A stretch of DNA of 33,350 nt from Phycisphaeraceae bacterium (GCA_036477175.1 JAZGCX010000044.1:1-33350); one strand, 5' to 3'; counted from the stretch's first letter, positions 1 to 24,251 are shown. Program-made: numbers and translations. The notes: generated from the letters alone by a model not told the origin.

Positions 1-757
1 CGTAGGCAATGATCTGCGGCACAACGGTGTGCTCGAAATCGGCAAGGATCTCCTGCTCGCTCTTGCCGAGCGTGGTCTGGTTGGAGATCTGGTACAGGTC
101 GCCCAGGGCTTCGGAGCCTTCACCGAATAGGCCTCGCACGGCCAGGTGCATGTCGCGCGCGGCACGACGGACCTTGTCGATCTCACCGGTCAGCCGCAGC
201 GCCGGCAGGTGCAGCATGACGCTCACACGGATCCCGGTGCCGACATTGGTTGGACACGCCGAGGTATAGCCGAACCGCCTGGAGTAGGCGAAGTCGAGCT
301 TCTCCTCCAGCACGTCATCGATGCGGTTGATCTGGTCGAAGGCCTCGGACAGTTGCATCCCGCTGCGCAGGACCTGGATGCGCAGGTGGTCCTCTTCATT
401 GACCATGATGGCAAAGGTTTCATCGGCGCCGATGGCCACGGCGCGGGGCAGGTCATCGTTGGCGTTAGCGTGCTGGCGGCTGATCAGGTGGCGCTCGACG
501 AGCAGTTGGCGGTCCAGGGTCGGACTATCGGGCAGGTTGACCCATAGGATGCCATTGGCCAGACGGCCGCTCATCACCTCGGCGCGGCAGTGTTCGAGGA
601 TCTCCAGTCGCTGGCGCCGGTTGGCGCGGCCGACGAAGGGATAGCCGGCGAGGTTGCGTGCCAGGCGGATTCGGCTGGAGATCACGATCTCGCTGTGCGG
701 CCCGGCGCCGCGGAGCCATTCGCCGGCGTGCTCGGTCATCTGGCGCAAGGTTCTCAT
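1..757 (-). CDS. mcsB: protein arginine kinase McsB (ATP:guanido phosphotransferase), N-terminal ~252 codons; C-terminus lies beyond the window edge
   Basis: Not in the supplied ORF track because it runs off the edge. My minus-strand translation from ATG 757-755 gives MRTLRQMTEHAGEWLRGAGPHSEIVISSRIRLARNLAGYPF...ACPTNVGTGIRVSVMLHLPAL...KSEQEILADFEHTVVPQIIAY, open down to base 2. It carries guanidino-kinase signatures (SSRIRLARN, CPTNVGTG). The ATG overlaps the mcsA stop (ATGA at 754-757). Confidence 0.85.
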   Translation of the reverse strand, partial: MRTLRQMTEHAGEWLRGAGPHSEIVISSRIRLARNLAGYPFVGRANRRQRLEILEHCRAEVMSGRLANGILWVNLPDSPTLDRQLLVERHLISRQHANANDDLPRAVAIGADETFAIMVNEEDHLRIQVLRSGMQLSEAFDQINRIDDVLEEKLDFAYSRRFGYTSACPTNVGTGIRVSVMLHLPALRLTGEIDKVRRAARDMHLAVRGLFGEGSEALGDLYQISNQTTLGKSEQEILADFEHTVVPQIIAY

Positions 758-1248
758 GCGTCGTCCTCAATGTGGCGGATATCGTCGCGGAGGCGTGCGG
801 CCAGCTCATAGTCTTCACGGTTGACGGCTTCGTCCAGCCGCTTGCGCATCCGCAGGATGTTGGCCTGGCGGTGTTCGCCGGCACCGGCGCGGCGAGGGAC
901 CTTGCCCAGGTGATGCGTACCGCCGTCGTGGGCCCGTTCCAGCAGCGGCCCCAGTAACTGCTCAAACGCCTTGTAACAGTTCGGGCAGCCTAACAGGCTG
1001 CTTTCGCGGAAGTCGGCAAACGTGAGGCCGCAGGTCTCGCAGACCAACTCCTGCTGGGTCGCCGCGCCGCTGTGCAACTTGACAAAGTTGGTCAACAACT
1101 CGTTGATCGGCGTGTGCACTGCTTTCACCGCCATCCCTTCCTGCTGGGCATGACGCTCACACAGGTGCTTCTCAATCTTCTGGCCCTTGATAATCTCCAC
1201 CGAATGGTGCGTGGCGGGCTGATCACACAGGTCACACTTTCGCTTCAC
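754..1248 (-). CDS. mcsA: McsA, activator of protein arginine kinase (Cys-pair zinc-finger-like N-terminus plus UVR-type C-terminus)
   Basis: Same frame as ORF 754..1383. I prefer the GTG at 1248-1246, which has GAGGA 7 nt upstream. Translation VKRKCDLCDQ..HLCERH..CETCG..CPNCY then YELAARLRDDIRHIE (UVR-like). The longer 209-aa version would read through the predicted promoter. Translationally coupled to mcsB. Confidence 0.8.
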   Translation of the reverse strand: MKRKCDLCDQPATHHSVEIIKGQKIEKHLCERHAQQEGMAVKAVHTPINELLTNFVKLHSGAATQQELVCETCGLTFADFRESSLLGCPNCYKAFEQLLGPLLERAHDGGTHHLGKVPRRAGAGEHRQANILRMRKRLDEAVNREDYELAARLRDDIRHIEDDA

Positions 1249-1276
1249 GGGTCGGTCCTCGTCAAACCTATGCTCA

Positions 1277-1305
1277 ATTCTAGAATTTCGCCACGGCCGA
1301 TTCAA
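1277..1305 (-). promoter_or_regulatory. sigma70-like promoter for mcsA-mcsB: TTGAAT-17 nt-TAGAAT, with the -10 embedded in a perfect 12-bp palindrome AATTCTAGAATT (1276-1287)
   Basis: Minus strand reads cccatTTGAATcggccgtggcgaaattcTAGAATtgagcat. The -35 is at 1305-1300 and the -10 at 1282-1277. It lies about 30 nt upstream of the GTG at 1248, which has its own GAGGA. Confidence 0.5.
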
Positions 1306-1446
1306 ATGGGCCCGGGCTGGTGGGGGATTGTTCCGGCTTCTTCTGTAGTTAATGCAGATAAAAGAGCGGCGTTGCGGCGTCACTGGGCCGGTCTGAGCGG
1401 GTCGGGTGAACCCGGGCCTCGCGGCCGGGGCTGGTGCGAGTGGTCA

Positions 1447-1520
1447 TACACCCGGCAGGGCTCGAACCTGCAACCTGCGGTTCCGTAGACCGCCGCTCTA
1501 TCCAATTGAGCTACGGGTGC
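1447..1520 (-). tRNA. tRNA-Arg (anticodon ACG)
   Basis: Manual cloverleaf: GCACCCG TA GCTC AATTGGATA GAGC G GCGGT CTACGGA ACCGC AGGTT GCAGG TTCGAGC CCTGC CGGGTGT A. It is 74 nt, has a TTCGA T-loop, and CCA is not encoded. Confidence 0.9.
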
Positions 1521-1586: not shown

Positions 1587-1650
1587 ATGACGAAGTCCGA
1601 ATGACGAATGACGAAACATCGTGTGCCATTCGGGCTTCGTCATTCGTCAT
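1587..1650. repeat. inverted arrays of TGACGAA heptamers forming alternative long hairpins; overlaps the cimA stop codon
   Basis: 1601-1615 atgacgaatgacgaa pairs perfectly (15 bp) with 1636-1650 ttcgtcattcgtcat. In another register, 1587-1603 atgacgaagtccgaatg pairs with 1627-1643 cattcgggcttcgtcat (17 bp, 1 mismatch). No U-tract follows on the cimA strand. Confidence 0.7.
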
Positions 1651-3295
1651 CGCCTCTTGCCACCTCAATCAGGTGGTAGGCGAAGGCGTCGGTGATGGCC
1701 TGCCAGGAGGCGTCCACGATGTTCTCGTTGACCCCGACGGTGCTGAAATACGAGGCGGCCCTGGCGTTTTCATTGTCGGGCCTGACGGCGAATTCGGCGA
1801 TGACGCGGACTTTGGCGGCCGACTCGGCGGTCGGGTTGACCACGCGGACCTTGTAATCGGTCAGGTGCACCTCGGTGATCTGCGGGTAATGGTCTTTGAG
1901 GCACTTGCGCAGTGCGGCGTCCAGCGCGTTGACCGGACCGTCGCCCTCGGCCACACGGTGTTCGACCGCCCCATTGACCGCAAGTTTAACGATCGCCTCG
2001 GTCGAGGCCGGCTCGTCGTCGCGCTTCAGGATCACGCAGCGGTAGTGGTCCAGTTCCCAGAACCGGGGCCGCGTGCCTAACACGTCGTGCAACAGCAGTT
2101 CGAAGCTGGCGGTGGCGGTTTCGAACTGGTAGCCCTGATGCTCCAGCTCCTGCACACGCTCCAGTAGCTGGCGCTGAACCTGCTTGTTGTCGGCGATATT
2201 AAACTTCCTGCCAAGCGTGGCCGAGATGTTGCTCGCCCCCGACAGCTCGCTGACGAGCACGCGGCGGACGTTGCCGACCTTTTCCGGCTCGACGTGCTCG
2301 TAACTGTGCGCCACGCGCTGCACCGCGTGCACGTGCATGCCGCCCTTGTGGGCAAAGGCGGCGCTGCCGACAAACGGCTGGTTAGGGATCAGGTTCATGT
2401 TGGCCGCCTCGTACACGAACCGGCTGGTCTCGGTCAGCTTCGACAGGCTGGCGTCGGACAGGCACTGGTAGCCCATCTTCAGGCACAGGGTCGCCGCGAC
2501 GGTGGTCAGGTCCACGTTGCCGCACCGCTCGCCGATGCCGTTGATCGTGCCCTGGACCTGCACGGCGCCGGCCTCGACGGCGGCGAGGGAGTTGGCCACC
2601 GCCAGTCCCGAGTCGTTGTGGCAGTGGATGCCCAGGAGGCTTGAGGCCTGGGGCTTGGGGCTTGAGGCAAGCGAGCCGAGGTATTGCTGCACCTGCTGCA
2701 CCACCTGACTGATCCAGCCCGGTAGCGACCCGCCGTTGGTGTCGCAGAGAATCAAGCGGCCGGCGCCGCCTTCCAGCGCTGCGGTTAGCGTCGCCAGCGC
2801 ATATTCACAGTTGGCCCGGTAGCCGTCGAAAAAATGCTCGGCATCGTAGAACACCTCGGTGCTGTCGGCCTGGCAACAAAACGCGACCGATTCACGGATC
2901 ATCGCCAGGTTCTCCTCGCGGCTGACACGCAGCACCTCGTCCACGTGCAGGCCCCACGTCTTGCCCACGATGGTGATCACAGGCGTGGCGGCGGCGACCA
3001 GCGCTTTCATGCCCGGGTCGGCGGCGGCGGACATGCCCTTTCGGCGGGTCATGCCGAACGCGCAGACCCTGGCGTGCTTGAGCTGGAGCTTGGCCACCTC
3101 GGCGAAATAGGCTGCGTCCTTGGGGTTGGACAGCGGATAGCCGCCCTCGATGTAGTCCACGCCCAGGGCGTCCAGGTGCTGGGTGATCTTGATCTTCTCC
3201 ACGAGGCTGAAGGCCACCCCAGCGCCTTGGGCGCCGTCGCGGAGCGTGGTGTCGTAGAGCTCGATCCGTCGCCCGTGTGGTTGTGACGTTTGCAT
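1640..3295 (-). CDS. cimA: (R)-citramalate synthase (LeuA-related 2-isopropylmalate synthase family, long form with C-terminal LeuA-dimer-type regulatory domain)
   Basis: [64 protein letters not shown].. matches the LeuA_rel/CimA N-terminal pattern (GG.P.SNPKD). 551 aa from ATG 3295-3293, with GGAGA 13 nt upstream. The 598-aa track ORF extension reads through the upstream terminator and leader, so I rejected it. Confidence 0.8.
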
Positions 3296-3372
3296 GGCCG
3301 ATTGGTCTCCGCCGCTGGTCCGGCCCGGCCGACCCGGCCGGGATACCGGTTGCCATTGAGGCCCTGTCCAAT

Positions 3373-3400
3373 AAAAAACCCTGCCGATCGGCAGGGTCTG
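3373..3400 (-). terminator. intrinsic terminator between the leader mini-ORF and cimA: CCCUGCC-GAUC-GGCAGGG followed by UUUUUU
   Basis: Minus strand reads ccagaCCCTGCCgatcGGCAGGGttttttattgg. The stem is 3396-3390 / 3385-3379 and the U-tract is 3378-3373. On the plus strand no T-run follows the hairpin, so the orientation is minus. Confidence 0.8.
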
Positions 3401-3429
3401 GATTCGCGAAGGCACGCTGATCGCAGGCC

Positions 3430-3495
3430 CTACCACAGGTAGCGGCTGTTAATGATAATGCGGGCGATCGCCGTGATGGGGCCGGTGCTCATCAT
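3430..3495 (-). promoter_or_regulatory. 21-codon Ile-rich leader peptide ORF (MMSTGPITAIARIIINSRYLW) upstream of cimA
   Basis: Minus strand: aatAGGGGGt ATG ATG AGC ACC GGC CCC ATC ACG GCG ATC GCC CGC ATT ATC ATT AAC AGC CGC TAC CTG TGG TAG. It has 5 Ile in 21 residues, three of them consecutive. The stop codon lies inside the antiterminator strand GGUAGGGCCUG (3434-3424). Confidence 0.65.
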
Positions 3496-3831: not shown

Positions 3832-6800
3832 ATGCCGGTACCGACGACGACATTCCGCAACATGAAAGTGTTGAACGCGATCTTCGCGGTCACCGCCGTG
3901 GTGCTGCTGCTGTCGACCTTCTGGCTGGTCGTCGCCGACCACTTCAAGAGCACCTGGCGGCGGTACCACCGGGCGGCGCGGGTGTGGGACGAAGCGATCC
4001 TCGTCGATGCTCATCGCGCCGCGCTATCCGATGAGTACATCCGCCAGATCAAACAACTGAACGCGGAGATAGGGGAACTGAAAGCGTCGATGAACGCCGA
4101 TGAAATCCGACGGCTCGAACAGCAGCTCACGGATACCAAGGAGAACAAGGAAAAGACGGCGTTGAAGCTGTCGGTCGAAAGAGGCAAGGTTGGCCCGAAA
4201 CGACAGCAGATCGAACGCGCCCGGCTCGAGTACGACGACGACTCCGACCAGGTCATCGCATTGCGGGGCGAACTTTGGCGCATCAATGAGGTCGTCGACA
4301 AGATGTCGGCAGACATGGCCGGCTTCGACCGCGAGATCGACGAGACGACCGCCAGACTCCACCAGGCGAAACAGAAGCTCAACCAGAAGCAAAAGAAGCT
4401 GGGCGACCTTGAACGCGACGACAAGACCATCAAGGAGACACTCGCCGCCGTTGCGCCCAAAGGCGCCGCCAAGGTCAGCGAACGGATTCGCAACGCCCCC
4501 CTGCTCGACTGGTTCAATGCCAGCGAAAGAATCGAACAGGTCGTCGTCCCCGACGTCCTGACCGACTACAACTTCGTCCAGGTCGAGACGATCGACCGGT
4601 GCACGACCTGTCACGTCAACATCGACGACCCGGTCTTCGAACAGAACACCCTGACCGCATTTACCGAACGCCAGGTTGCCCGGGCCCAGGGGCAGGCCGT
4701 CGCGGTGCTCGATCGCCCGGTCGTGATGCTCGGTTTCTGGGTCGAGGCGGCTCGATTAGCCGGCCTGAGCGACGAGCTGGACCGGCTCAACCAGCAGGCG
4801 CTGCAACAGATCAACGCCGTGCGTCAAGAGGCCGGCCTGGAACCGGTCAAAGCGACGAATCAATCGCAACTGTTGGCGACGTTTGACCGCATTGCCCAAT
4901 CGCCGGCCCCGGCCCCGGTGGCTACAGCCCGGTGGTACACCCCGCTGGTTAATTACCGGGACGACCTGATCTCACTGCTGGCAGAGCGCCTGGGCCAACA
5001 GCAGTTCAACCTGTTGAGCGACACCTACTGGTACGCGCTGATCGAAAAGTACAACGCGCAGCGGAAGGAGCAGAACCTACCCGCGGTATCGGCCAGCCCG
5101 GTGCTGCTGGGCCACCCGCAGATCGATTTATATGCCGGGCCTGATTCCAGCCACCCGGTCAAGACGATGGGCTGCACCGTCTGTCATGAAGGGTCGGGCC
5201 AGGAGACGCAGTTCGAGCACACCGCCCACTCGCCGCGGCCGATCTGGGTCGATGCCCAAACCGGCTCGCCCGTCGCCGACTTCATGATCGAGCAGCCCAG
5301 CGACGGCGACACCATCGAATCGTACATCCACTCAGCCCAGCTCGCCGCGAGCCGATCGGCCCACGAGACCGCCTCGGCCGACCAGGTCCCCGGCGGCGCC
5401 GCGGTCATTGCGGCATCGATGACAACCGCCACGGGTGACACAGGCCACGAGGAGACTGACAACGGTGGCCCCACCTACGTCCATGACGACTTAAATCTGG
5501 CCGACCCGGACAACCCGCACCACGCCCTTAGCCCTGAGCACGACCACGCCACCACCGCCGCCTACCGCAACCCGGCCGACCCGGCCAAGCCCCGACTGGC
5601 CATCCGTCAGGAACAGCATTGGCGTGAGCAATTCGGCTGGCACCACATCCATTACATGCACTGGGAAAAACCGATGCACGCGCTCGAATTTGTCGAGTCG
5701 AGCTGCAACAAATGTCACACCGAGGTCTACGGCATCCGAGACGCTGCACCGGTGCTCTTTCATGGCCGAAAGCTCTTCGCCCAGCTCGGCTGCGTCAACT
5801 GCCACGCGGTCACGTCGCTCGAAGACGATCTGGATATCAAGAAGGTCGGCCCGTCGCTGGTGAATGTGCGCTCCAAGCTGTCGCCTCAGATGACGGCCTC
5901 GTGGATCTGGGCGCCCAAGGCCTTTCGTCCCACCACGCGGATGCCGCACTACTTCATGCTCGAAAACAACTCGTCGCCCGTGGACATCCTGCGCACCCGC
6001 ACCGAAGTGACGGCAATCACCTACTACCTGCAAACCACGCCGCCACCCGAAGGCACACGGCCCTATGAGGTCGAGGCGGTGCCGGAGTTGGTTGGTACGA
6101 TCGACGAGAGCCGGCAGCGCGGCCGGACCCTGTTTCACCAATTGGGCTGTCTCGCCTGCCACAGCAACCTGGACGAGACCGGCGAGGCCTGGATCACCGC
6201 CGACCTGATGCAACGCAAGGGTTTGAGCGCCCCCGAGGCCAAAGCCCGGTACGTCTCGATGGCCGATGACACGCCCGACAACGGTTACAACGCCCGGCAC
6301 TGGTACGTGCAGCAACACCTGCAGGACCGCATGACACTGTTGGGCCCGGAGTTATCCGGCGTCGGCACCAAACTCAAGACCAGCCGCACCGAACAGCAGG
6401 CCCGCACCTGGCTATACGACTGGCTACGCAACCCCAGGCATTACTCGGGCTACACCATCATGCCGAGATTCCGGCTCACCGAGCAGGACACCAACGACCT
6501 GGCCACCTATCTGCTGTCGCTACAGCGGCCGGGCTATGAAGCTGACCGCTTCGGCTTCGCCGATGACGGCAGCGTCGCGCTCGACGACGACACCGAGCGC
6601 ATGCTCGCCGCATTAGTCGCCAACCTCCTGGCCGGCCAGAGCACCCCTGAGCTGGCGCGACAGGAGGTCACCAGTGCCACGGACCCAAACGACAGCTCCA
6701 AGAAGAAGTGGACACGCCACAAACAGTTGATGTTCCTCGGCCAGAAGACGATCAACCACTATGGCTGTAGCGGCTGTCACCAGATCAACGGGTTCGAGGA

Positions 6801-8850
6801 CGCCATTTCCGCGTGCACCACTCTCGATGAATGGGGCCTGAAGGACCCGCACAAGCTCGACTTTGGCTACTTCGACCGCGTCTTCGACGACCTGCGCGCC
6901 AAACCGCAACAGGTCTGGCGGGTCAGGCACGAAGGCCTTGAGGCCGACGCCCCACAGATTCGCTACGACAGCAATCGGGTGTATAAAGCTACGATTGCGT
7001 GGGAACAGTTGCACGAGATGGAGCGGCGCCCGTGGGCCTACCACAAGCTGCACAACACCCGCGTTTACGACCGCGGCCGCACCATGCTCCAAGGCAAGCT
7101 CGTCCGGGACGGCGATCAGCGCCGGTTCGACGTGGGCAGGCCTTACGACAAGCTCAAGATGCCCAAGTTCTTCCTCACCGACAACCAGGTCCGCGCCCTG
7201 GTCACTTTCATCACCAGCATCCGGACACCGCTGGTCTCGCAGCGGATCCAGCGCGCCGCCACCGGCGACGCGATGCACAAGATCATCCGCGGCCGGCAGC
7301 TCGCCACCCTCTACAACTGCTATGGCTGCCACAACATTGAAGGCAACGACGTGCTGATCCACCAGTACTTCGGCGTCTACAACGACGACGGCAGCTATAA
7401 CGACAACGCGCTGAACTGGGCGCCGCCGCGACTGATCGGCCAGGGCGCCAAGACCCAGCCCGATTGGCTGTACCACTTTCTCCAGAACGTCAACGGCCAG
7501 CCCAACGTCCCCGAGCCGGGCCAACCGCCCCCCGTCGGCGAAACCAAGATCCGGCCCTGGCTCAAGACCCGCATGCCCAGCTTCCCGCTCGACAACGACC
7601 AGGCCACCGTGCTGGTCGATTACTTCGCCAGCCACAGCCAACTGCTCGCCGCCGAGCTGAGCGAGATTGTCGCCGTGATCGACGCACACCTGGCACAGAT
7701 CGACCGGCACCGCCAGGACACCGAGCAGGAATTGAAACAACTGGAGCAGCAGGTAAAACAACCGGGCGCGTCGGAGCAACAGATCGAGCGGCTGGCCGAC
7801 CGGAAACAGCGGCTTGAGCATCAACGCGAAAACCTGCAAACACAACGCGCTCGCTGGTTCGCCAGCGACAACGACGAAGTGCAAACGGCCGTGCAGGAGC
7901 TGCGCGCCTTTGCGCTCCAGGCCGACCTGACCAGACCGCGCAACCTCGACCCGCGTCAGGTGCGCCAGAAGCGCCTGGTGAGGGAGTGGGCGGGTGTTTT
8001 GTCCAAGGCGCGGGCGCTGGCCGGGGCCTGGCAGACGGATTATCCCTACGTCCAGAAGAGCCGGCCGGTCGTGGACGAGACGGCGTTCGTCCGCGGCGAG
8101 CAACTGTTCGCCGAGATGGGCTGCATGACCGGGCAGTGCCACCGCGTCGGCGACGAACAGGTCCTGACCGACGCCGGCTTCGGCAGTTTTGGCGCGCCGC
8201 CCGCCGATGCGGACGACGAATACGACCCGTATGGGGAAGACGAACAAGAGCCGTACGGTGAAGAAGAAGACGCCTATGGCGAGGACGATCCATACGGCGC
8301 CGAAGACGCGTACGGCGAAGGCCCGACGGCGATGACCCGCGTCGTGGCCCCGGCACCGGATGAGCCCCCACCCGGCGCGCCGAATCTCAGCCGCGTCGCC
8401 GATCGGCTGCAACGCAACTGGGTCGAATTGTGGCTTCAGCACGCCGCCGCCATGCAGCCCGGCACACGCATGCAGCAATACTGGCTACAAGGCGAATCAC
8501 ACTTCAAGCCCATGCCACAAGCCACGCGACACGAGAAGGAAGCGCTGTACGGCCACAGTGCCGAGCAGCAGCAGCAGTACCTGATGGATTTCCTGTACGC
8601 CGTCGGCCCGCGACGCATCACCTACTCGCCCGACGGCAAGCGTCTGACCGGCCGGCCCAGCGAACCGGCGGCACTGAGCGCACTGGAGCGGCCGGCCGAC
8701 GGGGAGTCAGCCAAAGCACCCGATACCGAACAACCCGATCTGCCGCAGAGCGCCGACGGCGGCGAGGAAGCCGAGGTGATCCCCGTTCCCGACGAACCGG
8801 GTGAACAGCCCACCACCTCGACCCGTGCAGACGTGACGATCGAGCGTTAA
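3832..8850 (+). CDS. 1672-aa membrane-anchored multihaem c-type cytochrome (7 CxxCH + 1 CxxxxCH) with N-terminal TM helix and long coiled-coil segments
   Basis: TM helix VLNAIFAVTAVVLLLSTFWLVVA. Haem motifs, all in frame: CTTCH 4600, CTVCH 5173, CNKCH 5704, CVNCH 5791, CLACH 6148, CSGCH 6766, CYGCH 7318, CMTGQCH 8122. Class-I-like distal Met motifs: RMPHYF, IMPRFRL, KMPKFFL, RMPSFPL. The antisense ORFs across it are GC shadows. Confidence 0.9.
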   Translation: MPVPTTTFRNMKVLNAIFAVTAVVLLLSTFWLVVADHFKSTWRRYHRAARVWDEAILVDAHRAALSDEYIRQIKQLNAEIGELKASMNADEIRRLEQQLTDTKENKEKTALKLSVERGKVGPKRQQIERARLEYDDDSDQVIALRGELWRINEVVDKMSADMAGFDREIDETTARLHQAKQKLNQKQKKLGDLERDDKTIKETLAAVAPKGAAKVSERIRNAPLLDWFNASERIEQVVVPDVLTDYNFVQVETIDRCTTCHVNIDDPVFEQNTLTAFTERQVARAQGQAVAVLDRPVVMLGFWVEAARLAGLSDELDRLNQQALQQINAVRQEAGLEPVKATNQSQLLATFDRIAQSPAPAPVATARWYTPLVNYRDDLISLLAERLGQQQFNLLSDTYWYALIEKYNAQRKEQNLPAVSASPVLLGHPQIDLYAGPDSSHPVKTMGCTVCHEGSGQETQFEHTAHSPRPIWVDAQTGSPVADFMIEQPSDGDTIESYIHSAQLAASRSAHETASADQVPGGAAVIAASMTTATGDTGHEETDNGGPTYVHDDLNLADPDNPHHALSPEHDHATTAAYRNPADPAKPRLAIRQEQHWREQFGWHHIHYMHWEKPMHALEFVESSCNKCHTEVYGIRDAAPVLFHGRKLFAQLGCVNCHAVTSLEDDLDIKKVGPSLVNVRSKLSPQMTASWIWAPKAFRPTTRMPHYFMLENNSSPVDILRTRTEVTAITYYLQTTPPPEGTRPYEVEAVPELVGTIDESRQRGRTLFHQLGCLACHSNLDETGEAWITADLMQRKGLSAPEAKARYVSMADDTPDNGYNARHWYVQQHLQDRMTLLGPELSGVGTKLKTSRTEQQARTWLYDWLRNPRHYSGYTIMPRFRLTEQDTNDLATYLLSLQRPGYEADRFGFADDGSVALDDDTERMLAALVANLLAGQSTPELARQEVTSATDPNDSSKKKWTRHKQLMFLGQKTINHYGCSGCHQINGFEDAISACTTLDEWGLKDPHKLDFGYFDRVFDDLRAKPQQVWRVRHEGLEADAPQIRYDSNRVYKATIAWEQLHEMERRPWAYHKLHNTRVYDRGRTMLQGKLVRDGDQRRFDVGRPYDKLKMPKFFLTDNQVRALVTFITSIRTPLVSQRIQRAATGDAMHKIIRGRQLATLYNCYGCHNIEGNDVLIHQYFGVYNDDGSYNDNALNWAPPRLIGQGAKTQPDWLYHFLQNVNGQPNVPEPGQPPPVGETKIRPWLKTRMPSFPLDNDQATVLVDYFASHSQLLAAELSEIVAVIDAHLAQIDRHRQDTEQELKQLEQQVKQPGASEQQIERLADRKQRLEHQRENLQTQRARWFASDNDEVQTAVQELRAFALQADLTRPRNLDPRQVRQKRLVREWAGVLSKARALAGAWQTDYPYVQKSRPVVDETAFVRGEQLFAEMGCMTGQCHRVGDEQVLTDAGFGSFGAPPADADDEYDPYGEDEQEPYGEEEDAYGEDDPYGAEDAYGEGPTAMTRVVAPAPDEPPPGAPNLSRVADRLQRNWVELWLQHAAAMQPGTRMQQYWLQGESHFKPMPQATRHEKEALYGHSAEQQQQYLMDFLYAVGPRRITYSPDGKRLTGRPSEPAALSALERPADGESAKAPDTEQPDLPQSADGGEEAEVIPVPDEPGEQPTTSTRADVTIER

Positions 8851-8893
8851 CGCCGCCGGAACGGCCGGCCGGAAGGACCCGATTCACCCTCCC

Positions 8894-8921
8894 TTGTCAC
8901 TTGGCCGGGTCTCGATAGAAT
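8894..8921 (+). promoter_or_regulatory. candidate sigma70-like promoter upstream of the cupredoxin gene: TTGTCA-16 nt-TAGAAT
   Basis: cccTTGTCActtggccgggtctcgaTAGAATgtgg lies in the 176-nt gap after the cytochrome stop codon. Confidence 0.35.
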
Positions 8922-9026
8922 GTGGCAACGCAACCAGGCGGATGCCGAGTTGCCAAGCCAATTTTGCGTGTTTGGATTCACTGTAACCGGTGACGGTCGG
9001 GGGCCAGACAAACCACCAGGAAAGGA

Positions 9027-9851
9027 ATGGATGGTATCATGAGAGACAACAACTGGCTCAAGTGGGTATCCGCAGTAACGGCCTGCGGCCTGATGGCCTT
9101 GGCCTTGGCCTTGGCCGCCAACCACGCGGCTGCGCAAGATGAAGCACAACCACCGGTGCTTAACGTCGGCGGCGTGACCGACGGCAGCGGCGGCACCATC
9201 AAGGGCATTGTCAAGTTCGACGGCAAACAAGCGCGGCGCAAGCCGATCCGCATGGATGCCGATCCGGTCTGCGAAGCCGCCCACGGCGACACACCGGTGC
9301 TCTCCGAGCGGTGGGTGTTCGGCGATAACGATACGCTCCAGAACGTGTTCGTTTATGTCAGTGCCGGCCTCGAAGGCAAATCCTTTGATCCACCGAATAA
9401 GACCCCCGTGCTCGACCAGCGCGGCTGCGTGTACGCGCCGCACGTCATGGGCGTGGTCGCCGGCCAGACAATCTTGATCCTAAACAGCGACAACACGATG
9501 CATAACGTGCACGCCACGCCCAAGCTCAACGCAAACTTCAACCAGTCCCAGGCCCCCAGCGTGAAAATCAGTGCGACCTTCGAAGACCCCGAGATGGCTA
9601 TCGGGGTCAAATGCGATATCCATACGTGGATGGGCGCCTACATCCACGTGATGGAGCACCCGTTCTTCGCAATTACGCAACAGGACGGCACGTTCGAGAT
9701 CAAGGGGCTCCCTCCCGGTGAGTACGAGTTGCGCACCTGGCACGAGTTCAACAAGTTCAAGCCCGATCAGCAGGTCTACAAGGTCACCGTCGAGGAAGGC
9801 GGCGCAGCCGAAGTGACCGTCACATATTCGCCGCCGAAGAAGAAAGGCTGA
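9027..9851 (+). CDS. secreted cupredoxin-like (type-1 copper site-like) protein with C-terminal CarboxypepD_reg-like beta-sandwich
   Basis: Signal peptide WLKWVSAVTACGLMALALALAANHAAAQ. Candidate copper ligands are NTMHNVHA and CDIHTWM (Cys 9612, His 9621, Met 9630; C-x2-H-x2-M spacing as in amicyanin). C-terminal QQDGTFEIKGLPPGEYELRTWHE. The start may instead be the ATG at 9039, which has better SD spacing. Confidence 0.65.
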   Translation: MDGIMRDNNWLKWVSAVTACGLMALALALAANHAAAQDEAQPPVLNVGGVTDGSGGTIKGIVKFDGKQARRKPIRMDADPVCEAAHGDTPVLSERWVFGDNDTLQNVFVYVSAGLEGKSFDPPNKTPVLDQRGCVYAPHVMGVVAGQTILILNSDNTMHNVHATPKLNANFNQSQAPSVKISATFEDPEMAIGVKCDIHTWMGAYIHVMEHPFFAITQQDGTFEIKGLPPGEYELRTWHEFNKFKPDQQVYKVTVEEGGAAEVTVTYSPPKKKG

Positions 9852-9910
9852 CCGGTCAGGGCGAGGCGGCGGCGCGCAACTGGTTGGCGGCGCCCACATG
9901 ACCCGGCCTA

Positions 9911-10492
9911 ATGTCAGATGCTGCGCAACTGCTCAAGGAGCGAGCTTTGCAATCCCCAAAAATCCGGGCGCATCTATGGCAGAAGCTGTCGATCCTGACA
10001 CTGCTTATAGCTCTGGCCGCAGCAGCGGCGCCGGCACTGGCGCAAAGTGATCAGCCTACACCCACACCCCAAGACCCGGGAACCGAAACCTTCGGCCGGT
10101 TCGGCTGGTGGATGCCTCCCGTGGTCTCGGGCAGCGGTGCCGGGATCGACAAGCTCTTCTACGCCATCTGCTGGATGACGGGGATTGTTTTTGTCGGTGT
10201 GTTTGTGGCGATGATCATCTTCACGATCCGCTACCGCCACCGCCCCGGCCGCCATGCCCCCGTCATCCACGGCCGCCACCGGATGGAAGCCGTCTGGACG
10301 CTTGTGCCGACCGTGATCCTGGCGCTCACCGCGGCGGCGAGCCAGAGCACCTGGTCCGGCGTCAAGAGCCCCGCCCACAGGCCCACCGGGGGCAATGTAG
10401 TCCAGGTCGAGGTCGAGGAGGATAACCTGCCGCAGCCGGCGGTCCGGCCCCCGGGCGTGGTCGAGCCGACGGAGCACGAACGGGATTTCTGA
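9911..10492 (+). CDS. cytochrome c oxidase subunit II N-terminal (signal peptide + two TM helices) only; CuA cupredoxin domain absent (truncated gene or stand-alone COX2_TM protein)
   Basis: FGWWMPPVVSGSGAGIDKLFYAICWMTGIVFVGVFVAMIIFTIRYRHRPGRHAPVIHGRHRMEAVWTLVPTVILALTAAASQSTW fits the COX2 TM-domain pattern. The ORF stops about 45 aa later, after NVVQVEV, with no H..CxExC..H..M CuA motif. Confidence 0.7.
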   Translation: MSDAAQLLKERALQSPKIRAHLWQKLSILTLLIALAAAAAPALAQSDQPTPTPQDPGTETFGRFGWWMPPVVSGSGAGIDKLFYAICWMTGIVFVGVFVAMIIFTIRYRHRPGRHAPVIHGRHRMEAVWTLVPTVILALTAAASQSTWSGVKSPAHRPTGGNVVQVEVEEDNLPQPAVRPPGVVEPTEHERDF

Positions 10493-10594
10493 TTGCGGAT
10501 TTCAGATTTTTGGACTTGGCCCCGCACTTGACATGAAATGAAACGGCATCGCCTGATGACCAATCAGCAATCCGCAATCGGCAATCTACAATCG
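10491..10594. repeat. inverted heptamer arrays bracketing the ctaA start: (GATTNNN)x3 at 10491-10511 and (NCAATCN)x5 at 10560-10594
   Basis: gattgcg gatttca gattttt ... ccaatca gcaatcc gcaatcg gcaatct acaatcg. There is a perfect 11-bp inverted repeat, gattgcggatt (10491-10501) / aatccgcaatc (10569-10579). Both candidate ctaA ATGs (10538, 10556) lie between the arms. Confidence 0.7.
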
Positions 10595-11683
10595 GCCTAT
10601 CGCCCGTGGCTGCACCGCTATGCGTGTCTGCTGGTCGTGGCCACGTTTATTCTGGTCGCCAGCGGCGGCAATGTGACCAGCCGTGACGCCGGTCTTGCAG
10701 TACCTGACGGGTTCACCGTTTACGGTCATTTTCTCTGGACCTTTCCGGTCGAAAAATGGGTCGGCAACGTCTTTCACGAACACATTCACCGACTCAAGGG
10801 CAGCGTGGTCGGCCTGATGTGTATTGCCTTGGTGATCTGGCTGTGGCGCACGCAACGTCATCGGCCCTGGCTGGGCAGGCTCAGCCTGGCGGTGCTCGCG
10901 CTGGTCATCGTTCAGGGCATCATGGGCGGGCTCCGCGTCGAGTTCGTCAACTGGTTCAGCGCCCTAGCCACCCCGTTCGCCATTCTGCACGGCATCACCG
11001 GACAAGTCTTTCTCTGCATGACCGTATTGGTTGCTGCCGCCACCAGCAGGTTATGGATTGAACACGCCTGCGACAGCCGCTCGCGGCTTAGCCGCGGTTC
11101 TCAATCCCTCCGCCGGCTTACGCTGGTGCTCCTGGTAGTCCTGCTGATCCAACTGAGTCTGGGCGCGGCGATGCGGCACACCGGGTCAGGTCTGGCCATC
11201 CCCGACTTCCCGGCCTCGTACGGCCAACTGGTGCCGCCGCTTTCACCACAGGCGATCACCGAAGCCCACGACGCGCTGGTGCCATACGACGAGTTCGACG
11301 GCGACGTGTACCCAACGCCGGCCCAGGTCGGCGTACATTTTGCCCATCGCGTGTGGTCTTTGGTCGTGCTCGGGGTTAGCGGGTACCTGCTGACCAGGCT
11401 GGCTTACGCGTTCGGCCGGCATCGGCTGCTGGTCGGGCCAATCCTCGCGCTGGCAGCGCTTCTGATCGTCCAACTGGCGCTGGGCGCGGCGGTGATATGG
11501 ATGGGCAGGCATCCGGATGTCGCCACCGCGCACCAGGCGACCGGCGCAGCGATCCTGGCCACCGCAGCGCTGCTGACCTTCCGCGTGTACCGGGTGTCGC
11601 GCATCGGTCCCACGCGCGATCCAGTGCCCTTTGCGGCCCCGATGCCGGCCCCGGGCGCTCGAGTGGAGGTAATCGGCACATGA
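10538..11683 (+). CDS. ctaA: haem A synthase (COX15/CtaA family)
   Basis: Polytopic membrane protein with paired His motifs (FHEHIHRL, MRHTGSGLA, HFAHRVW, HQATGA) and the typical N-terminus LHRYACLLVVATFILVASGGNVTS. The start is 10538 or 10556. The stop overlaps the ctaB ATG (ATGA at 11680-11683). Confidence 0.85.
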   Translation: MKRHRLMTNQQSAIGNLQSAYRPWLHRYACLLVVATFILVASGGNVTSRDAGLAVPDGFTVYGHFLWTFPVEKWVGNVFHEHIHRLKGSVVGLMCIALVIWLWRTQRHRPWLGRLSLAVLALVIVQGIMGGLRVEFVNWFSALATPFAILHGITGQVFLCMTVLVAAATSRLWIEHACDSRSRLSRGSQSLRRLTLVLLVVLLIQLSLGAAMRHTGSGLAIPDFPASYGQLVPPLSPQAITEAHDALVPYDEFDGDVYPTPAQVGVHFAHRVWSLVVLGVSGYLLTRLAYAFGRHRLLVGPILALAALLIVQLALGAAVIWMGRHPDVATAHQATGAAILATAALLTFRVYRVSRIGPTRDPVPFAAPMPAPGARVEVIGT

Positions 11684-12642
11684 CGCAACTGACCCACCGG
11701 CACGATCCAGGCTCGGTCGGTCGGCTCATGCTCGACCGCGACAGTCATCGTCTGGCCGTGATGGCGCGCCTGTCGGACTTGTACCAACTGACCAAGTTGC
11801 GGATCACGGTGATGGTGGCAATGACCGCGTCGATCGGCTTTGCGCTGGGTGTGCGGGCCGCACCGTTGCGAGGATTGGAAGCGTCGGCGTGGTCGTGGTG
11901 GCAATTGTTGGCCACGGTAGTGGGCACGGCCATGTCGTGCATGGGCGCCAGCGCATTGAACCAGGTCTGCGAAGCCGATGCCGATGCAAAGATGCATCGC
12001 ACAAAGGACCGGCCGCTGCCCGCTGAACGTATCTCCGCCGCATCGGCGACGGTGCTCGGTCTGGCGCTGGGCGTAGGCGGCGTCGCAACCCTGGCCGTGC
12101 TGACCAACCCGTTCGCCGCCGGTCTGTCAGCGTTCACCCTGCTGAGTTACATACTCATCTATACACCATTGAAACGAGTCAGCAGCGTTTCGACGATCGT
12201 CGGGGCCGTGCCCGGAGCGCTTCCACCGGTGATCGGATACGCGGCGGCGACCGGTGCGATCGGCGTCGAGGCCGTGATCGTCTTTGCCATCATGTTCCTG
12301 TGGCAACTGCCGCACTTTTTGGCGATTGCCTGGCTGTATCGCGATGACTTTGCCCGCGCCGCGTTCCCGATGCTGCCGGTGCTCGACCCGACCGGCGGCA
12401 GCACGTTCCGGCAAATCCTGTTGGGGTGCATGGCCCTGGTGCCGTTGGGGCTCCTGCCGGCGGTCGTCGGTTTTGCGGGCAAGGGGTATTTCTTCGGGGC
12501 GCTGTTGGCGGGTGTGGCGTTCCTGGGATTCGGGGTCGCACTAGTGATCGGCCGAACCCGCGGCCATGCCCGCGCCCTGTTTATTGCATCGCTGGTGTAC
12601 CTGCCGCTGGTACTGGCGCTGATGGTGGTGGACGGGGCTTGA
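11680..12642 (+). CDS. ctaB: protohaem IX farnesyltransferase (haem O synthase, UbiA family)
   Basis: LYQLTKLRITVMVAMTASIGF..NQVCEADADAKMHRTKDRPLPAERIS.. is a UbiA-type Asp-rich motif. I chose the ATG at 11680 (ATGA coupling with ctaA) over the track start at 11497, which overlaps the ctaA C-terminus. Confidence 0.85.
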   Translation: MTQLTHRHDPGSVGRLMLDRDSHRLAVMARLSDLYQLTKLRITVMVAMTASIGFALGVRAAPLRGLEASAWSWWQLLATVVGTAMSCMGASALNQVCEADADAKMHRTKDRPLPAERISAASATVLGLALGVGGVATLAVLTNPFAAGLSAFTLLSYILIYTPLKRVSSVSTIVGAVPGALPPVIGYAAATGAIGVEAVIVFAIMFLWQLPHFLAIAWLYRDDFARAAFPMLPVLDPTGGSTFRQILLGCMALVPLGLLPAVVGFAGKGYFFGALLAGVAFLGFGVALVIGRTRGHARALFIASLVYLPLVLALMVVDGA

Positions 12643-12726
12643 GGAGACGTGCAACGGCGGAGAACCGCCTGCCGCCTGGATACCCTGCGTGCGGCGCGCC
12701 GGTCCAGACGGATCCGATCGAGATAG

Positions 12727-13794
12727 ATGAGCCAGGTCACTGCCCACCAGACCGACGCCGGACACGCCGCTACGGGCGCCGACACGCTGGCCGTTGAAGT
12801 CGAGAACCTCTCACACACCTACCCGGCACCGCGCGGCCGGCGCCGGCCACGTGCCGGCGAATCCGCCGCCGCAACGGCGACGCATCGACCGGCGCTCGAC
12901 CGCGTCAGCTTCAAGATTCACACCGGCGAAATCTTCGGCATCCTCGGCCCTAACGGCGGCGGAAAGACCACCCTCTTTCGCATCCTCTCAACCATGCTGC
13001 GGCCCAACGGTGGTGACGGCCGCGTCAGCGTTTTCGGCGACAGCGTGCTCGATCAACCGGCGCGCGTCCGCCGCCACCTTGGCATTGTCTTTCAGAACCC
13101 CAGCGTTGATGTCAAGCTCACGGCGGAGGAAAACCTGATCCACCAGGGCCGGCTCTACGGCCTGGGCGGCGCGGCGCTTCGTCAGCGAATCGACAGGTGG
13201 CTGAGGCGGCTGGGCCTGAACGACCGCCGTGACGAACGCGTCGAACGCTTCAGCGGCGGCATGCGGCGCCGCGTCGAACTGGCCAAGGCGCTGCTGCACG
13301 AGCCGCGACTGCTGCTGCTTGATGAGCCGGCCACCGGGCTCGACCCCGGCGCGCGGCGCGATCTGAGCCGCCACCTCGACGACCTGCGGCGCGAGCAAGG
13401 CGTCACCGTGGCGCTGACCACGCACCTGATGGCAGAGGCTGACCGATGCGATCGGCTGGCTGTGCTCGCCGCCGGCAAGATCGTGGCGCTGGACACCCCG
13501 GCCAACCTCAAGGCCGCGATCTGCGGCGACGTGATCAACGTCGAGCCAACCGACAATGCCCAGGCCCTTTGCGAGCAGATCGCCGCCCGGTTTGGCCCCT
13601 GGCCTGATGGAGCGACCCCCACGGTCATTGACGGTCAGGTACACTTTGATAAACCCAACGGGCCGCAACTCGTCGCTGAGCTGACCGCTGCGCTGCCCGG
13701 TCAAATCCGCAGCGTCACTGTCGGCCAGCCGACGCTGGAAGACGTGTTCCTGCACCTGACCGGCCGGACGTTGTGGGACCCGAGCCCCTACTAA
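12727..13794 (+). CDS. ABC transporter ATP-binding protein (ABC-2/DrrA/NosF-like), no adjacent permease
   Basis: Walker A GPNGGGKTT, signature FSGGMRRR, Walker B LLLLDEPATGLD, H-loop TTHLM, and a C-terminal extension typical of ABC-2-type ATPases. Confidence 0.85.
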   Translation: MSQVTAHQTDAGHAATGADTLAVEVENLSHTYPAPRGRRRPRAGESAAATATHRPALDRVSFKIHTGEIFGILGPNGGGKTTLFRILSTMLRPNGGDGRVSVFGDSVLDQPARVRRHLGIVFQNPSVDVKLTAEENLIHQGRLYGLGGAALRQRIDRWLRRLGLNDRRDERVERFSGGMRRRVELAKALLHEPRLLLLDEPATGLDPGARRDLSRHLDDLRREQGVTVALTTHLMAEADRCDRLAVLAAGKIVALDTPANLKAAICGDVINVEPTDNAQALCEQIAARFGPWPDGATPTVIDGQVHFDKPNGPQLVAELTAALPGQIRSVTVGQPTLEDVFLHLTGRTLWDPSPY

Positions 13795-13975
13795 CGGAAC
13801 CCGGTGGCTCCCACGGACCGATGAGTATGTGCCAACGACGTGTTGGTGCGTTCGGCCGCAGCCGCTGAAAATCGACCCGAAAATGGCCATGCCAGCGACC
13901 CGCCCCGGGTTCGACAACACGACCCCCGCAAGAAAAATCGAGCATTGAACGGCCCTGCGTGCCCAGGAATTGCGG

Positions 13976-14005
13976 TTGCATGATCGAGGATTCATCGGTT
14001 ATACT
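13976..14005 (+). promoter_or_regulatory. candidate sigma70-like promoter TTGCAT-18 nt-TATACT inside the non-coding gap, about 350 nt upstream of pabB
   Basis: gcggTTGCATgatcgaggattcatcggtTATACTgatgg. It sits in the locally AT-richer stretch of the gap. Confidence 0.35.
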
Positions 14006-14360
14006 GATGGATTCTGAGTGCGCTCGGTGGATCTATCCTGATCGCCTACATCGGGAGGGGCGCCTCGCCAGAAAACGTGGGATTGAAGAGAGACATTGAC
14101 CGTGCCTCGCACGGGTTGTCAGTGGCGATTTCCGCATTGACTGAACCAGCCGGTTCCGCCGTCGCACCGCGGCCGCAATGTGCACCGATCACTATTGGAG
14201 CCACGCCAGAGACGCCGGCAAACCAGGACAATGGGGCGGATTGGAGAGAGCTATTGATCCGGAGTGGTCGTAGCGTTCCTGAGGGGTAGCCGGTCTCTGG
14301 CGTGGCTCGTCTGTGCGGTCGTCCCGGACCCCAGCACCGGGTCACCGCTACCATGCGGAC

Positions 14361-15793: not shown

Positions 15794-15952
15794 TGTTGTG
15801 GCAGTTGTTCCGCGCGCTTCGCCTACGGGGCGCTGTTCGGTGCAGATCGACCGACGAGAACGCAGCTCAATCCTCTTCGATGTGTTCGACGAACTCGACG
15901 CAAATGCCGATGACTTGGCGGATTGTGGTCTAAATCCTTGCCAGAGCAACAA

Positions 15953-16026
15953 TACGCCCGGGAGGATTCGAACCCCCAACCCTCGGATCCGAAGTCCGAT
16001 GCTCTGTCCAGTTGAGCTACGGGCGC
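15953..16026 (-). tRNA. tRNA-Arg (anticodon TCG)
   Basis: Manual cloverleaf: GCGCCCG TA GCTC AACTGGACA GAGC A TCGGA CTTCGGA TCCGA GGGTT GGGGG TTCGAAT CCTCC CGGGCGT A. It is 74 nt and CCA is not encoded. Confidence 0.9.
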
Positions 16027-16088
16027 AGCGGGTAACGCTACACGTTACGGGTGGTGGACGCGGTCGTCAACGCTAAGCCGCAAGCGGC

Positions 16089-17781: not shown

Positions 17782-17822
17782 CGTTAAGAAGAACACAAAA
17801 GCAAGAGCAGGAGAGCAGGACG

Positions 17823-18578: not shown

Positions 18579-18613
18579 AACCGACCACGTTTCCAAGTAC
18601 TGGCGGCGAACTC

Positions 18614-20272: not shown

Positions 20273-20276
20273 ACTG

Positions 20277-22078: not shown

Positions 22079-22305
22079 CTTCATTCGTAATTCACGAAGT
22101 TTCAGGAGCAATTCAGATGCGAACACATGTCCCTTCAGGCAGTTTGTCACGACAGGTACAAGGCTAAACGGGGCGGTCGGGACGAGAAGAATCGCACGAA
22201 CGGTCAACGGGGCGGAGGAGGAGGCATCGTCGCTGCCGGGCCGCCTCATCTCGAAAGAAATGCGGTGGCGTCGCGGCTGCGACGCGGTGTCTATGGATCA
22301 AACCA

Positions 22306-23484: not shown

Positions 23485-23573
23485 CCCGTCGGACCGACGC
23501 CAGCGGCCGGTGCCGGGGTATTTTGCATCGCGCTTCGCTTTTCAGCGTGCCGCGTTCGCCTTACCATTCAGGC

Positions 23574-24224: not shown

Positions 24225-24251
24225 CCGAATAGCACCGAGAGGCCCAAACCG

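Follow-up and report, generated by a model that had tools for sequence, protein, structure and literature searches.

A Phycisphaeraceae locus for haem A synthesis and redox carriers as a probable deletion-scarred derivative of an aa3-type oxidase operon

The DNA analysed here, a 33,350-nucleotide (nt) stretch from a Phycisphaeraceae bacterium (GCA_036477175.1, JAZGCX010000044.1:1-33350; hereafter, the window), carries six co-directional genes that encode a giant multihaem cytochrome, a cupredoxin (P2), a fragment of oxidase subunit II (CoxB), a haem A synthase (CtaA), a haem O synthase (CtaB), and an ABC ATPase. With a probability of about 80%, this locus is an in-situ, deletion-scarred derivative of a respiratory operon for an aa3-type oxidase that is conserved among the Phycisphaerae. 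The evidence consists of the gene order in relatives, three deletion scars, the presence of the same arrangement in four assemblies, the cupredoxin fold modelled for P2, and the intact state of the surviving genes. A sequence-only reading of the window had proposed an uncharacterised respiratory or electron-transfer module; its six reading frames and their spacing (176, 59, and 45 nt, an ATGA overlap of ctaA and ctaB, and 84 nt) were reproduced by open reading frame (ORF) calling. The features are as follows.

3832-8850, plus strand: giant cytochrome gene (ORF call, 1672 aa)
8815-8850, plus strand: deletion scar A, the last 11 codons of the cytochrome (TSTRADVTIER) and the stop codon (homologue alignment)
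9027-9851, plus strand: P2 cupredoxin gene (ORF call), the first gene of the oxidase operon proper
9911-10492, plus strand: CoxB stub ORF (ORF call, 193 aa)
9911-10414, plus strand: CoxB part of the stub, with signal peptide, two transmembrane helices, and the first cupredoxin strand
10406-10417, plus strand: deletion junction B, tandem GTCGAG-GTCGAG (alignment to four relatives)
10412-10477, plus strand: CoxA part of the stub, the last ~22 codons of coxA, then 4 extra codons (tblastn)
10538-11683, plus strand: ctaA (ORF call)
11680-12642, plus strand: ctaB (ORF call)
12643-12726: deletion scar C, an 84-nt spacer in place of coxC (~210 aa) and coxD (~120-160 aa)
12727-13794, plus strand: ABC ATPase gene (ORF call)
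13795-14312: 518-nt noncoding stretch after the ABC ATPase gene, with no ORF and no similarity to partner proteins
1640-3436, minus strand: leuA (2-isopropylmalate synthase; matches to HMGL-like, HCS_D2, and LeuA_dimer), the divergent neighbour that serves as synteny anchor

As the sequence-only reading had stated, genes for CoxA, CoxC, a Rieske protein, cytochrome b, and alternative complex III (ACIII) were not found among the larger ORFs of the window. The sole CoxA sequence present is a 22-codon tail fused into the CoxB stub.

The oxidase operon in Phycisphaerae relatives

A scan of species-representative genomes yielded 77 related loci, onto which the proteins of one of them (L003) and the window leuA and ABC ATPase were mapped; gene orders were read as far as each contig reaches. 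The order in L003 is leuA (minus strand), cytochrome, a 265-aa CarboxypepD_reg protein, COX2_TM plus COX2, COX1 (989 aa), CtaA, CtaB, COX3, and COX4. Approximately 45 of the 77 loci share the order leuA (minus strand), cytochrome, P2, COX2, COX1, CtaA, CtaB, COX3, COX4, and ABC ATPase, and these loci span the Phycisphaeraceae, the Tepidisphaerales (including the cultured Fontivita pretiosa), and Phycisphaera-like clades. Most Phycisphaeraceae loci have a divergent leuA upstream of the giant cytochrome, and because the same divergent leuA lies beside the cytochrome in the window, the window locus and the intact operons are positional orthologues. Fortuitous adjacency, which had been named as a possible refutation of the proposed module, is excluded by this strong conservation of gene order, indicating that the genes belong together.

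The cytochrome gene and the oxidase genes are separable. The cytochrome stands alone beside leuA in six to eight loci, and in three of these genomes the series P2, COX2, COX1, CtaA, CtaB, COX3, COX4, and ABC ATPase was found elsewhere in the same genome. P2 is always immediately upstream of coxB in the relatives, also where the cytochrome gene lies elsewhere.

The oxidase of the relatives belongs to the A family, with a CoxB (TIGR02866) bearing the CuA motif CAELCGQGHFTM, a CtaD, an aa3-type CtaE, and a caa3-type subunit IV (scored over L003:16386-23711 and its equivalents in the ~45 loci, L006-L082). These subunits fall just below the trusted cutoffs of NCBIfam (142.9 versus 147.7 for CoxB; 627.9 versus 670.75 for CtaD, TIGR02891). 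According to a 2024 survey, caa3, cbb3, and bd oxidases are missing from Phycisphaeraceae genomes (PMC11266412); given that the subunits of the relatives score under the cutoffs of curated hidden Markov models, this reported absence may be an annotation-threshold effect.

The intact operon opens with an anchored octahaem cytochrome, normally ending in its own cupredoxin domain, followed by a separate type-1-copper P2. It continues with a divergent A-family oxidase (CuA-bearing CoxB, long CoxA, CoxC, and subunit IV), with CtaA and CtaB encoded between coxA and coxC, and ends with a DrrA-type ABC ATPase.

Several features of the operon vary among the relatives. Their CoxA proteins are 900-990 aa long (L003:17406-20375; L083, L084, and L085), and the CtaD model matches residues ~260-695 only, leaving an N-terminal extension of ~260 residues and a long C-terminal extension; the Tepidisphaerales proteins are without most of the N-terminal insert. 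One Tepidisphaerales metagenome-assembled genome has two complete clusters from cytochrome to COX4 (L040 and L053; JBBROD010000044.1 and JBBROD010000017.1), so duplication of the whole cluster occurs in the class. Seven Tepidisphaerales loci (L034, L035, L038, L040, L048, L049, and L053) have an extra P2-like gene between ctaB and coxC, and in some Phycisphaera-like loci (L069 and L070) coxB is preceded by a tandem pair of P2 genes.

Deletion scars in the window locus

One record of gene loss in the window is the CoxB stub, which had been read as a CoxB fragment lacking CuA and which matches only the COX2_TM model of Pfam. Its residues 50-168 align with residues 27-141 of the L003 CoxB (53% identity), and the alignment reaches no further than the first strand of the CuA domain. 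From there the same frame continues into CoxA: tblastn places residues 968-989 of COX1 at positions 10412-10477, and the stub tail, VEEDNLPQPAVRPPGVVEPTEH, fits the Phycisphaeraceae CoxA terminus VVEEDYLPQ..LPAGVVEPxGH (followed by the stop codon) seen in ~20 loci, with ~40 CoxA termini compared. When the stub is aligned with four relatives, V168 is both the last residue that aligns with CoxB and the first that aligns with CoxA, and GTC-GAG-type codons occur at both junction sites in the relatives. About 3.5 kb is missing at junction B: coxB is without its CuA domain and coxA without about 930-970 codons, and the spacer between the two genes is gone. We infer that the deletion was mediated by microhomology, and the chimeric CoxB-CoxA ORF that it left is probably functionless.

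A second scar lies at the end of the cytochrome gene. In a tblastn search with the L003 cytochrome, residues 1-1531 are covered by the window gene, and residues 1571-1777 match the separate P2 gene instead (43% identity). A P2-like domain of ~210 residues, which keeps the same invariant H, C, H, and M as P2, stands between the linker and the terminus in 18 of 19 aligned homologues and is missing from the window cytochrome. The homologues terminate in TS(x)R(x)DVT(L/I)xx before the stop codon, as in NTSSRADVTLKR; in the window, the linker runs straight into TSTRADVTIER and the stop. Scar A is an in-frame loss of the fused cupredoxin plus prealbumin-like (P2-like) domain. Fission of the cytochrome gene is rejected as the origin of P2, because P2 possesses a separate signal or anchor helix and is 57% identical to stand-alone P2 proteins versus 43% to the fused domain.

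The third scar is the 84-nt spacer between ctaB and the ABC ATPase gene. The order CtaB, COX3, COX4, and ABC ATPase occurs in ~25 loci whose contigs reach that far, and every complete relative has coxC and coxD between ctaB and the ABC ATPase gene. No similarity to COX3 or COX4 was detected by tblastn anywhere in the window.

A fourth loss may have followed the ABC ATPase gene. Orthologues of this ATPase (45-65% identity) terminate the operon in the relatives, and the next gene there encodes a DrrB-like permease, a 255-264-aa membrane protein of no known family, or a P-type ATPase. A tblastn search of the whole window for the DrrB-like permease, the 255-264-aa partner, and the P-type ATPase recovered neither a gene nor a remnant, in agreement with the earlier observation of an ABC ATPase without a permease. 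The noncoding stretch at 13795-14312 holds 9 of the 77 mismatches between the window and the closest assembly (L005), a density of 1.7% versus 0.41% overall, and is possibly the site of a lost membrane partner. A weak sigma-70-like match lies within it, at 13911-13938. As regards the relatives, the multi-pass membrane protein of 255-264 aa encoded 3' of the ABC ATPase (L084:19268-20062 and L085:19608-20375, the latter with an 8-nt overlap) belongs to no Pfam or NCBIfam family and shows 35% identity between the two loci; it may be an unrecognised membrane partner of the ATPase of this operon.

The same architecture recurs in other assemblies. The alignment of L005 (GCA_044345325.1) to the window is collinear for 18,850 nt and free of gaps, and it contains 77 mismatches (99.6% identity). 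L166 (GCA_044231125.1; 96.8% over 1,036 nt) and L167 (run ERR10503129; 98.3% over 1,984 nt) also align without gaps and have the same chimeric tail, and the 90%-identity cluster of the stub contains four members. Because L005, L166, and L167 carry the same chimera, the junction is not an assembly artefact, and because the chimera is common to contigs that are 96.8-99.6% identical, the deletions are older than a nucleotide divergence of at least ~3%. As the window comes from one metagenomic contig of 33 kb and the junction lies inside a short repeat, chimeric joining by the assembler, or an error of binning, might be suspected. We regard this as very improbable: the repeat is merely 6 nt, the three scars are independent and two of them preserve the reading frame, and the four assemblies, under different accessions, differ by single-nucleotide changes only and share the same junction.

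In the lineage of the window, three deletions took the cupredoxin domain of the cytochrome, the CuA domain of CoxB with nearly all of CoxA, and CoxC with CoxD, leaving the in-frame chimeric ORF. With the catalytic subunits, and hence the electron acceptor, deleted, the window locus cannot make an oxidase or reduce O2. The position of the haem A genes beside redox carriers instead of an oxidase, which had been taken as the mark of a distinct module, is accordingly a secondary state, since the relatives hold coxB, coxA, coxC, and coxD there.

Similar losses have occurred elsewhere in the class. L020 retains a 111-residue CoxA tail alone between the cytochrome and ctaA, having lost P2, coxB, and ctaB. 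L039, from the Tepidisphaeraceae, has the order cytochrome, CtaA, CtaB, P2-like, and ABC ATPase, with all four oxidase subunits gone. L081 contains cytochrome, P2, CtaA, and CtaB, and L063 contains cytochrome, P2, and a weak CtaA-like ORF. The operon has thus decayed, partially and independently, in L020, L039, L063, and L081, besides the clade of the window.

The surviving genes and rival explanations

The genes for haem synthesis are intact. CtaA matches PF02628 (COX15-CtaA) over its full length and keeps 40 of the 41 columns that are at least 95% conserved among 32 orthologues, including six His residues. CtaB scores 267 bits against TIGR01473 (haem O synthase; cutoff, 210), so that both synthases are as first identified. 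Conserved columns by the same 95% standard are kept almost throughout in CtaB (45 of 47), the ABC ATPase (48 of 49), and P2 (22 of 23). The ABC ATPase scores 116 bits against ABC_tran and 270 bits against TIGR01188 (DrrA-like; below the trusted cutoff), and its translation displays GPNGGGKTT, SGGMRRR, LLLLDEP, and TTH as Walker A, signature, Walker B, and H-loop.

P2 had been noted for an amicyanin-like C-x2-H-x2-M site, and this site (C196-x2-H199-x2-M202) is invariant among 32 homologues, as are H159, C82, and C134. The AlphaFold2 model of P2 (mean predicted local distance difference test [pLDDT], 91.8) was matched by Foldseek to the NirK cupredoxin domain, amicyanin, pseudoazurin, and plastocyanin, with E values from 4e-6 to 1e-4 and target TM-scores of 0.57-0.73, and the P2 profile weakly matches blue-copper proteins in the PDB. 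None of the Pfam cupredoxin models is matched; Pfam matches are limited to the C-terminal third (prealbumin-like, CarboxypepD_reg, and SpaA models). P2 is, on this model, a predicted type-1 copper cupredoxin, exported or anchored, with a C-terminal prealbumin-like domain. Because most homologues of the cytochrome are fused to a P2-like domain, the cytochrome is tied functionally to P2 and to the oxidase (a Rosetta-stone link).

The cytochrome has the properties first read from its sequence. A single hydrophobic helix (residues ~12-36) is followed by a coiled coil, haems 1-3 with a His-rich segment (residues 551-620), four His/Met class-I-like units, a second coiled coil, haem 8, and an acidic tail. 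The eight haem-binding motifs comprise seven CxxCH (C257, C448, C625, C654, C773, C979, and C1163) and one Cx4CH (C1431-C1436-H1437, haem 8), and the class-I-like units are marked by four MPxF/Y motifs (M704, M877, M1110, and M1248). All eight haem Cys/His sites, the four Met residues of these motifs, and M1547 are invariant in a 20-sequence family alignment that includes the window protein, so the motifs are not chance occurrences.

This protein also proved, as had been suspected, to lie outside any named complex: it matches no curated family above cutoff, is nameless in the databases, and has no relative among solved structures. Pfam detects Cytochrom_C (91.9 bits, two units matched), with weak matches to FixO and SoxX. 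The 95 homologues, of 1300-2350 aa, are essentially all from Phycisphaerae/Planctomycetota and unnamed, and many have a CarboxypepD_reg match fused at the C terminus. An AlphaFold2 model of residues 231-1290 (pLDDT, 69) had no PDB match by Foldseek at E<1, the weak similarities to class-I cytochrome c and NorC being at E>1; the sequence profile matched a CcoO/SoxX-like unit in the PDB at residues 634-703 and otherwise coiled-coil noise. Three identities were considered and rejected. For ACIII (ActABCDEF), there is no ActA-type match, and genes for ActB and ActC/F are absent from the window and from the operons of the relatives. For CcoO or CcoP of cbb3 oxidases, the FixO match is limited to ~58 residues (30 bits), the TIGR00781 score of 28.6 lies under the cutoff of 200, and there is no CcoN. 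For SoxX, a short match stays far under its cutoff, with the partner genes missing.

In the intact operon, the cytochrome could act as a tethered electron wire, its anchor and coiled-coil stalk holding eight c-type haems in the periplasm. Haems 1-3 are probably bis-His, having no Met motif and lying among the invariant H428, H441, and H466 and an HYMHWEKPMH segment; haems 4-8 would be His/Met ligated, with invariant Met ligands. Electrons would probably pass from ACIII, which has been reported as the quinol oxidoreductase of Phycisphaerales (PMC11266412), to haems 1-3, to haems 4-8, to blue copper (fused, P2, or both), to CuA, and finally to O2.

The surviving genes differ in the constraint that they show. 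The ratio of nonsynonymous to synonymous change per site (pN/pS, by the Nei-Gojobori method, for the window versus L005 unless another contig is named) is 0.09 for the pooled flanking genes, 0.09 for ctaA, 0.16 for the ABC ATPase gene, and 0.21 for P2; the value of 0.38 for ctaB derives from 2 changes only. The giant cytochrome has a ratio of 0.51 (12.5 nonsynonymous and 7.5 synonymous changes), and its raw codon counts (12 nonsynonymous, 7 synonymous) differ from those of leuA, ctaA, ctaB, the ABC ATPase gene, and the chorismate-binding gene pooled (P = 0.0097, Fisher exact test). Against the more distant contigs, pN/pS is 0.07-0.18 for P2, 0.25-0.34 for ctaA, and 0.21 and 0.81 for the stub, whose informative comparisons number two (0.81 being from the most divergent). 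Although counts are small, these ratios suggest that P2, ctaA, and the ABC ATPase gene are still constrained and that the stub and the cytochrome are relaxed. Over longer times, the window proteins show the same identity to ten Phycisphaeraceae relatives as these relatives show to one another, indicating no long-term acceleration.

That the survivors are intact and under purifying selection suggests that they still serve something. P2, CtaA, CtaB, and the ABC ATPase would most simply serve a different haem A oxidase, or a different periplasmic acceptor, whose genes lie at another genomic site. The same evidence has a different meaning if the five retained genes (cytochrome, cupredoxin, CtaA, CtaB, and ABC ATPase) form a self-sufficient module for electron transfer or haem handling that is selected without an adjacent oxidase. 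The purifying selection on P2, ctaA, and the ABC ATPase gene after the deletion, and the in-frame nature of both ORF-internal deletions, are compatible with such a module, and the unrelated Tepidisphaeraceae locus L039 keeps the same gene set without the four oxidase subunits, as L081 keeps cytochrome, P2, CtaA, and CtaB. We nevertheless consider it unlikely. The arrangement derives from a complete oxidase operon at the same locus, the cytochrome lacks its copper output domain and has a relaxed pN/pS, the stub is near neutral in the most divergent comparison, and the ABC ATPase has no adjacent membrane partner. Haem A, moreover, is not known to be used outside haem-copper oxidases. Because L039 converges on the gene set of the window, some small probability is kept for an oxidase-independent role; it is doubtful that, once the local oxidase was lost, the genes were retained independently in both lineages as a functional unit, whether as a haem-A-producing periplasmic system for electron transfer by copper and haem, feeding a terminal enzyme that is not the canonical aa3 oxidase, or through use of haem A outside haem-copper oxidases. 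The interpretation of the sequence-only reading survives in part: the genes do belong together and the cytochrome is unnamed, but a stand-alone module is not supported, in view of the deletion scars and of the ABC ATPase, which is the regular terminal gene of the operon.

At the other extreme, the whole operon may be dead, with aerobic respiration abandoned and the six ORFs being pseudogenes-in-waiting that have yet to acquire disabling mutations. Three or four separate deletions in one operon would fit this account, as would the elevated pN/pS of the cytochrome and the stub, the fast-evolving noncoding stretch after the ABC ATPase gene, and the independent decay in L020, L039, L063, and L081. 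The class, too, contains many fermentative or anaerobic lineages (PMC11266412). Yet the surviving ORFs have acquired no frameshift or stop across up to 3.2% nucleotide divergence, almost all conserved residues are kept, the pN/pS of ctaA, the ABC ATPase gene, and P2 resembles that of housekeeping neighbours, and long-term divergence is not raised. Complete abandonment of the operon is, in our judgement, quite improbable.

The derivation of the locus from an aa3-type oxidase operon by in-situ deletion, with the survivors serving an acceptor elsewhere, also has points against it. The second haem A oxidase elsewhere in the genome is putative; were there none, purifying selection on ctaA and ctaB would be unexplained. 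A scan of genomes with the cytochrome returned none closer than ~50% identity, a scan of metagenome contigs with CtaB had a best match of 60% and returned no near relative with an intact operon, and across these genome and metagenome contig scans no intact relative above 62% protein identity was found. Having no close intact relative, the deletions are undatable and their breakpoints unseen at the DNA level. Analogy is the basis for the proposed direction of electron flow and for ACIII as the partner. The in-frame state of two deletions, with a chance of ~1/9, could hint at selection for a translated product. Finally, the contrasts in pN/pS are suggestive only, because substitutions are few (1-12 per gene).

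Known systems, surroundings, and implications

Among known systems, the operon of the relatives resembles the A-family aa3 operons that include ctaA and ctaB (e.g., ctaA-ctaBCDEF of Bacillus subtilis), in likewise uniting within a single transcription unit a CoxB with CuA, CoxA, CoxC, subunit IV, and the haem O and haem A synthases; the window shares ctaA, ctaB, and a transmembrane fragment of CoxB with them. The operon of the relatives differs in placing ctaA and ctaB between coxA and coxC, in the 900-990-aa CoxA with its ~260-residue N-terminal extension, and in opening with a cupredoxin and closing with an ABC ATPase, usually preceded by an octahaem cytochrome of 1300-2350 aa. In the window, CtaB, CtaA, and positional orthology with the ~45 loci are present, and subunit I, a CuA-bearing subunit II (CxExCGxxHxxM), subunit III, and subunit IV are absent; for want of these four subunits, the window locus is a derivative of the functional aa3 operons and not a member of them.

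The rus operon of Acidithiobacillus ferrooxidans (cyc2-cyc1-acoP-coxBACD-rus) likewise combines c-type cytochromes, a cupredoxin whose gene immediately precedes coxB (AcoP in that operon, P2 in the present one), and an aa3 oxidase. Unlike the rus operon, the Phycisphaerae operon has no Cyc2-type outer-membrane porin-cytochrome, its cytochrome is a giant anchored octahaem protein rather than a dihaem c4, and its P2 has an extra prealbumin-like domain; there is no relationship at the sequence level and no evidence of iron oxidation. The rus operon and COX genes have been discussed for the genus, in which species without rus/COX genes keep ctaA for other haem A oxidases (PMC8239418), a precedent showing that ctaA can survive without neighbouring COX genes.

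The component proteins have their own analogues. Cytochrome cy (Rhodobacter capsulatus), c552 (Paracoccus), and the cytochrome c domain fused to caa3 oxidases are placed to shuttle electrons from the quinol:cytochrome c oxidoreductase to CuA, as the giant cytochrome would be. Together with the rus operon, cytochromes cy and c552 are the nearest analogues of the intact design, and neither shows a sequence relationship to it. The giant cytochrome is likewise anchored to the membrane at its N terminus and has a long linker and candidate His/Met class-I cytochrome c domains; it differs in having eight haems rather than one, ~1700 aa, coiled-coil stalks, a His-rich region, and, in the relatives, a terminal blue-copper domain. 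P2 resembles amicyanin, pseudoazurin, and plastocyanin in its cupredoxin fold, its His-Cys-His-Met set, and its amicyanin-type C-x2-H-x2-M loop; it differs from them in its 17-23% identity, an extra invariant Cys pair (C82 and C134), a CarboxypepD_reg/SpaA-like C-terminal domain, and its occurrence also as a cytochrome-fused domain. The ATPase is related to DrrAB-type ABC-2 exporters by its TIGR01188 score, and one clade of relatives has a DrrB-like permease (179 bits, TIGR01247). In contrast to DrrAB, however, ATPase and permease are both below trusted cutoffs, the permease is replaced in Phycisphaeraceae by the 255-264-aa protein or is absent, and nothing follows the ATPase in the window.

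Elsewhere in the window are genes for LeuA, a chorismate-binding enzyme, a polysaccharide-export cluster, PhoH, a 7TM-HD protein, L9, SSB, and a phosphonate-binding protein, with no oxidase, bc1, or ACIII gene among the larger ORFs. Scans of the window for promoter and terminator consensus sequences stayed at background level, and Rfam and tRNA scans returned two tRNA-Arg genes as the only Rfam matches.

1447-1520, minus strand, and 15952-16027, minus strand: the two tRNA-Arg genes (anticodons ACG and TCG), in the flanks
754-1383, minus strand: gene for a UVR-motif protein
17107-25607, plus strand: co-directional cluster for polysaccharide biosynthesis and export

The members of the last cluster are a Bac_transf sugar transferase, a Poly_export protein, a 552-aa protein without a family, an AAA_22 ATPase, an AAA_31/ParA-like protein, a weakly glycosyltransferase-like protein, and two ORFs without a family. 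In L005, the UVR-motif gene is followed by a gene for a McsB-like protein arginine kinase (ATP-gua_Ptrans; L005:5040-6595), forming a McsA/McsB-type pair that adjoins tRNA-Arg.

The finding itself is ordinary gene loss in an unusual, uncharacterised, lineage-specific oxidase operon. It explains an odd neighbourhood by losses whose scars, an in-frame CoxB-CoxA fusion and the 11-codon terminus of the cytochrome, are unusually legible. It also brings out a class-wide, uncharacterised arrangement in which a divergent aa3 oxidase would be served by a blue-copper-fused octahaem cytochrome and a second, free cupredoxin. Metabolic predictions for the abundant marine and soil Phycisphaerae may underestimate aerobic respiration, and the repeated, independent decay of the operon offers a natural experiment on which accessory genes are useful after the oxidase is lost.

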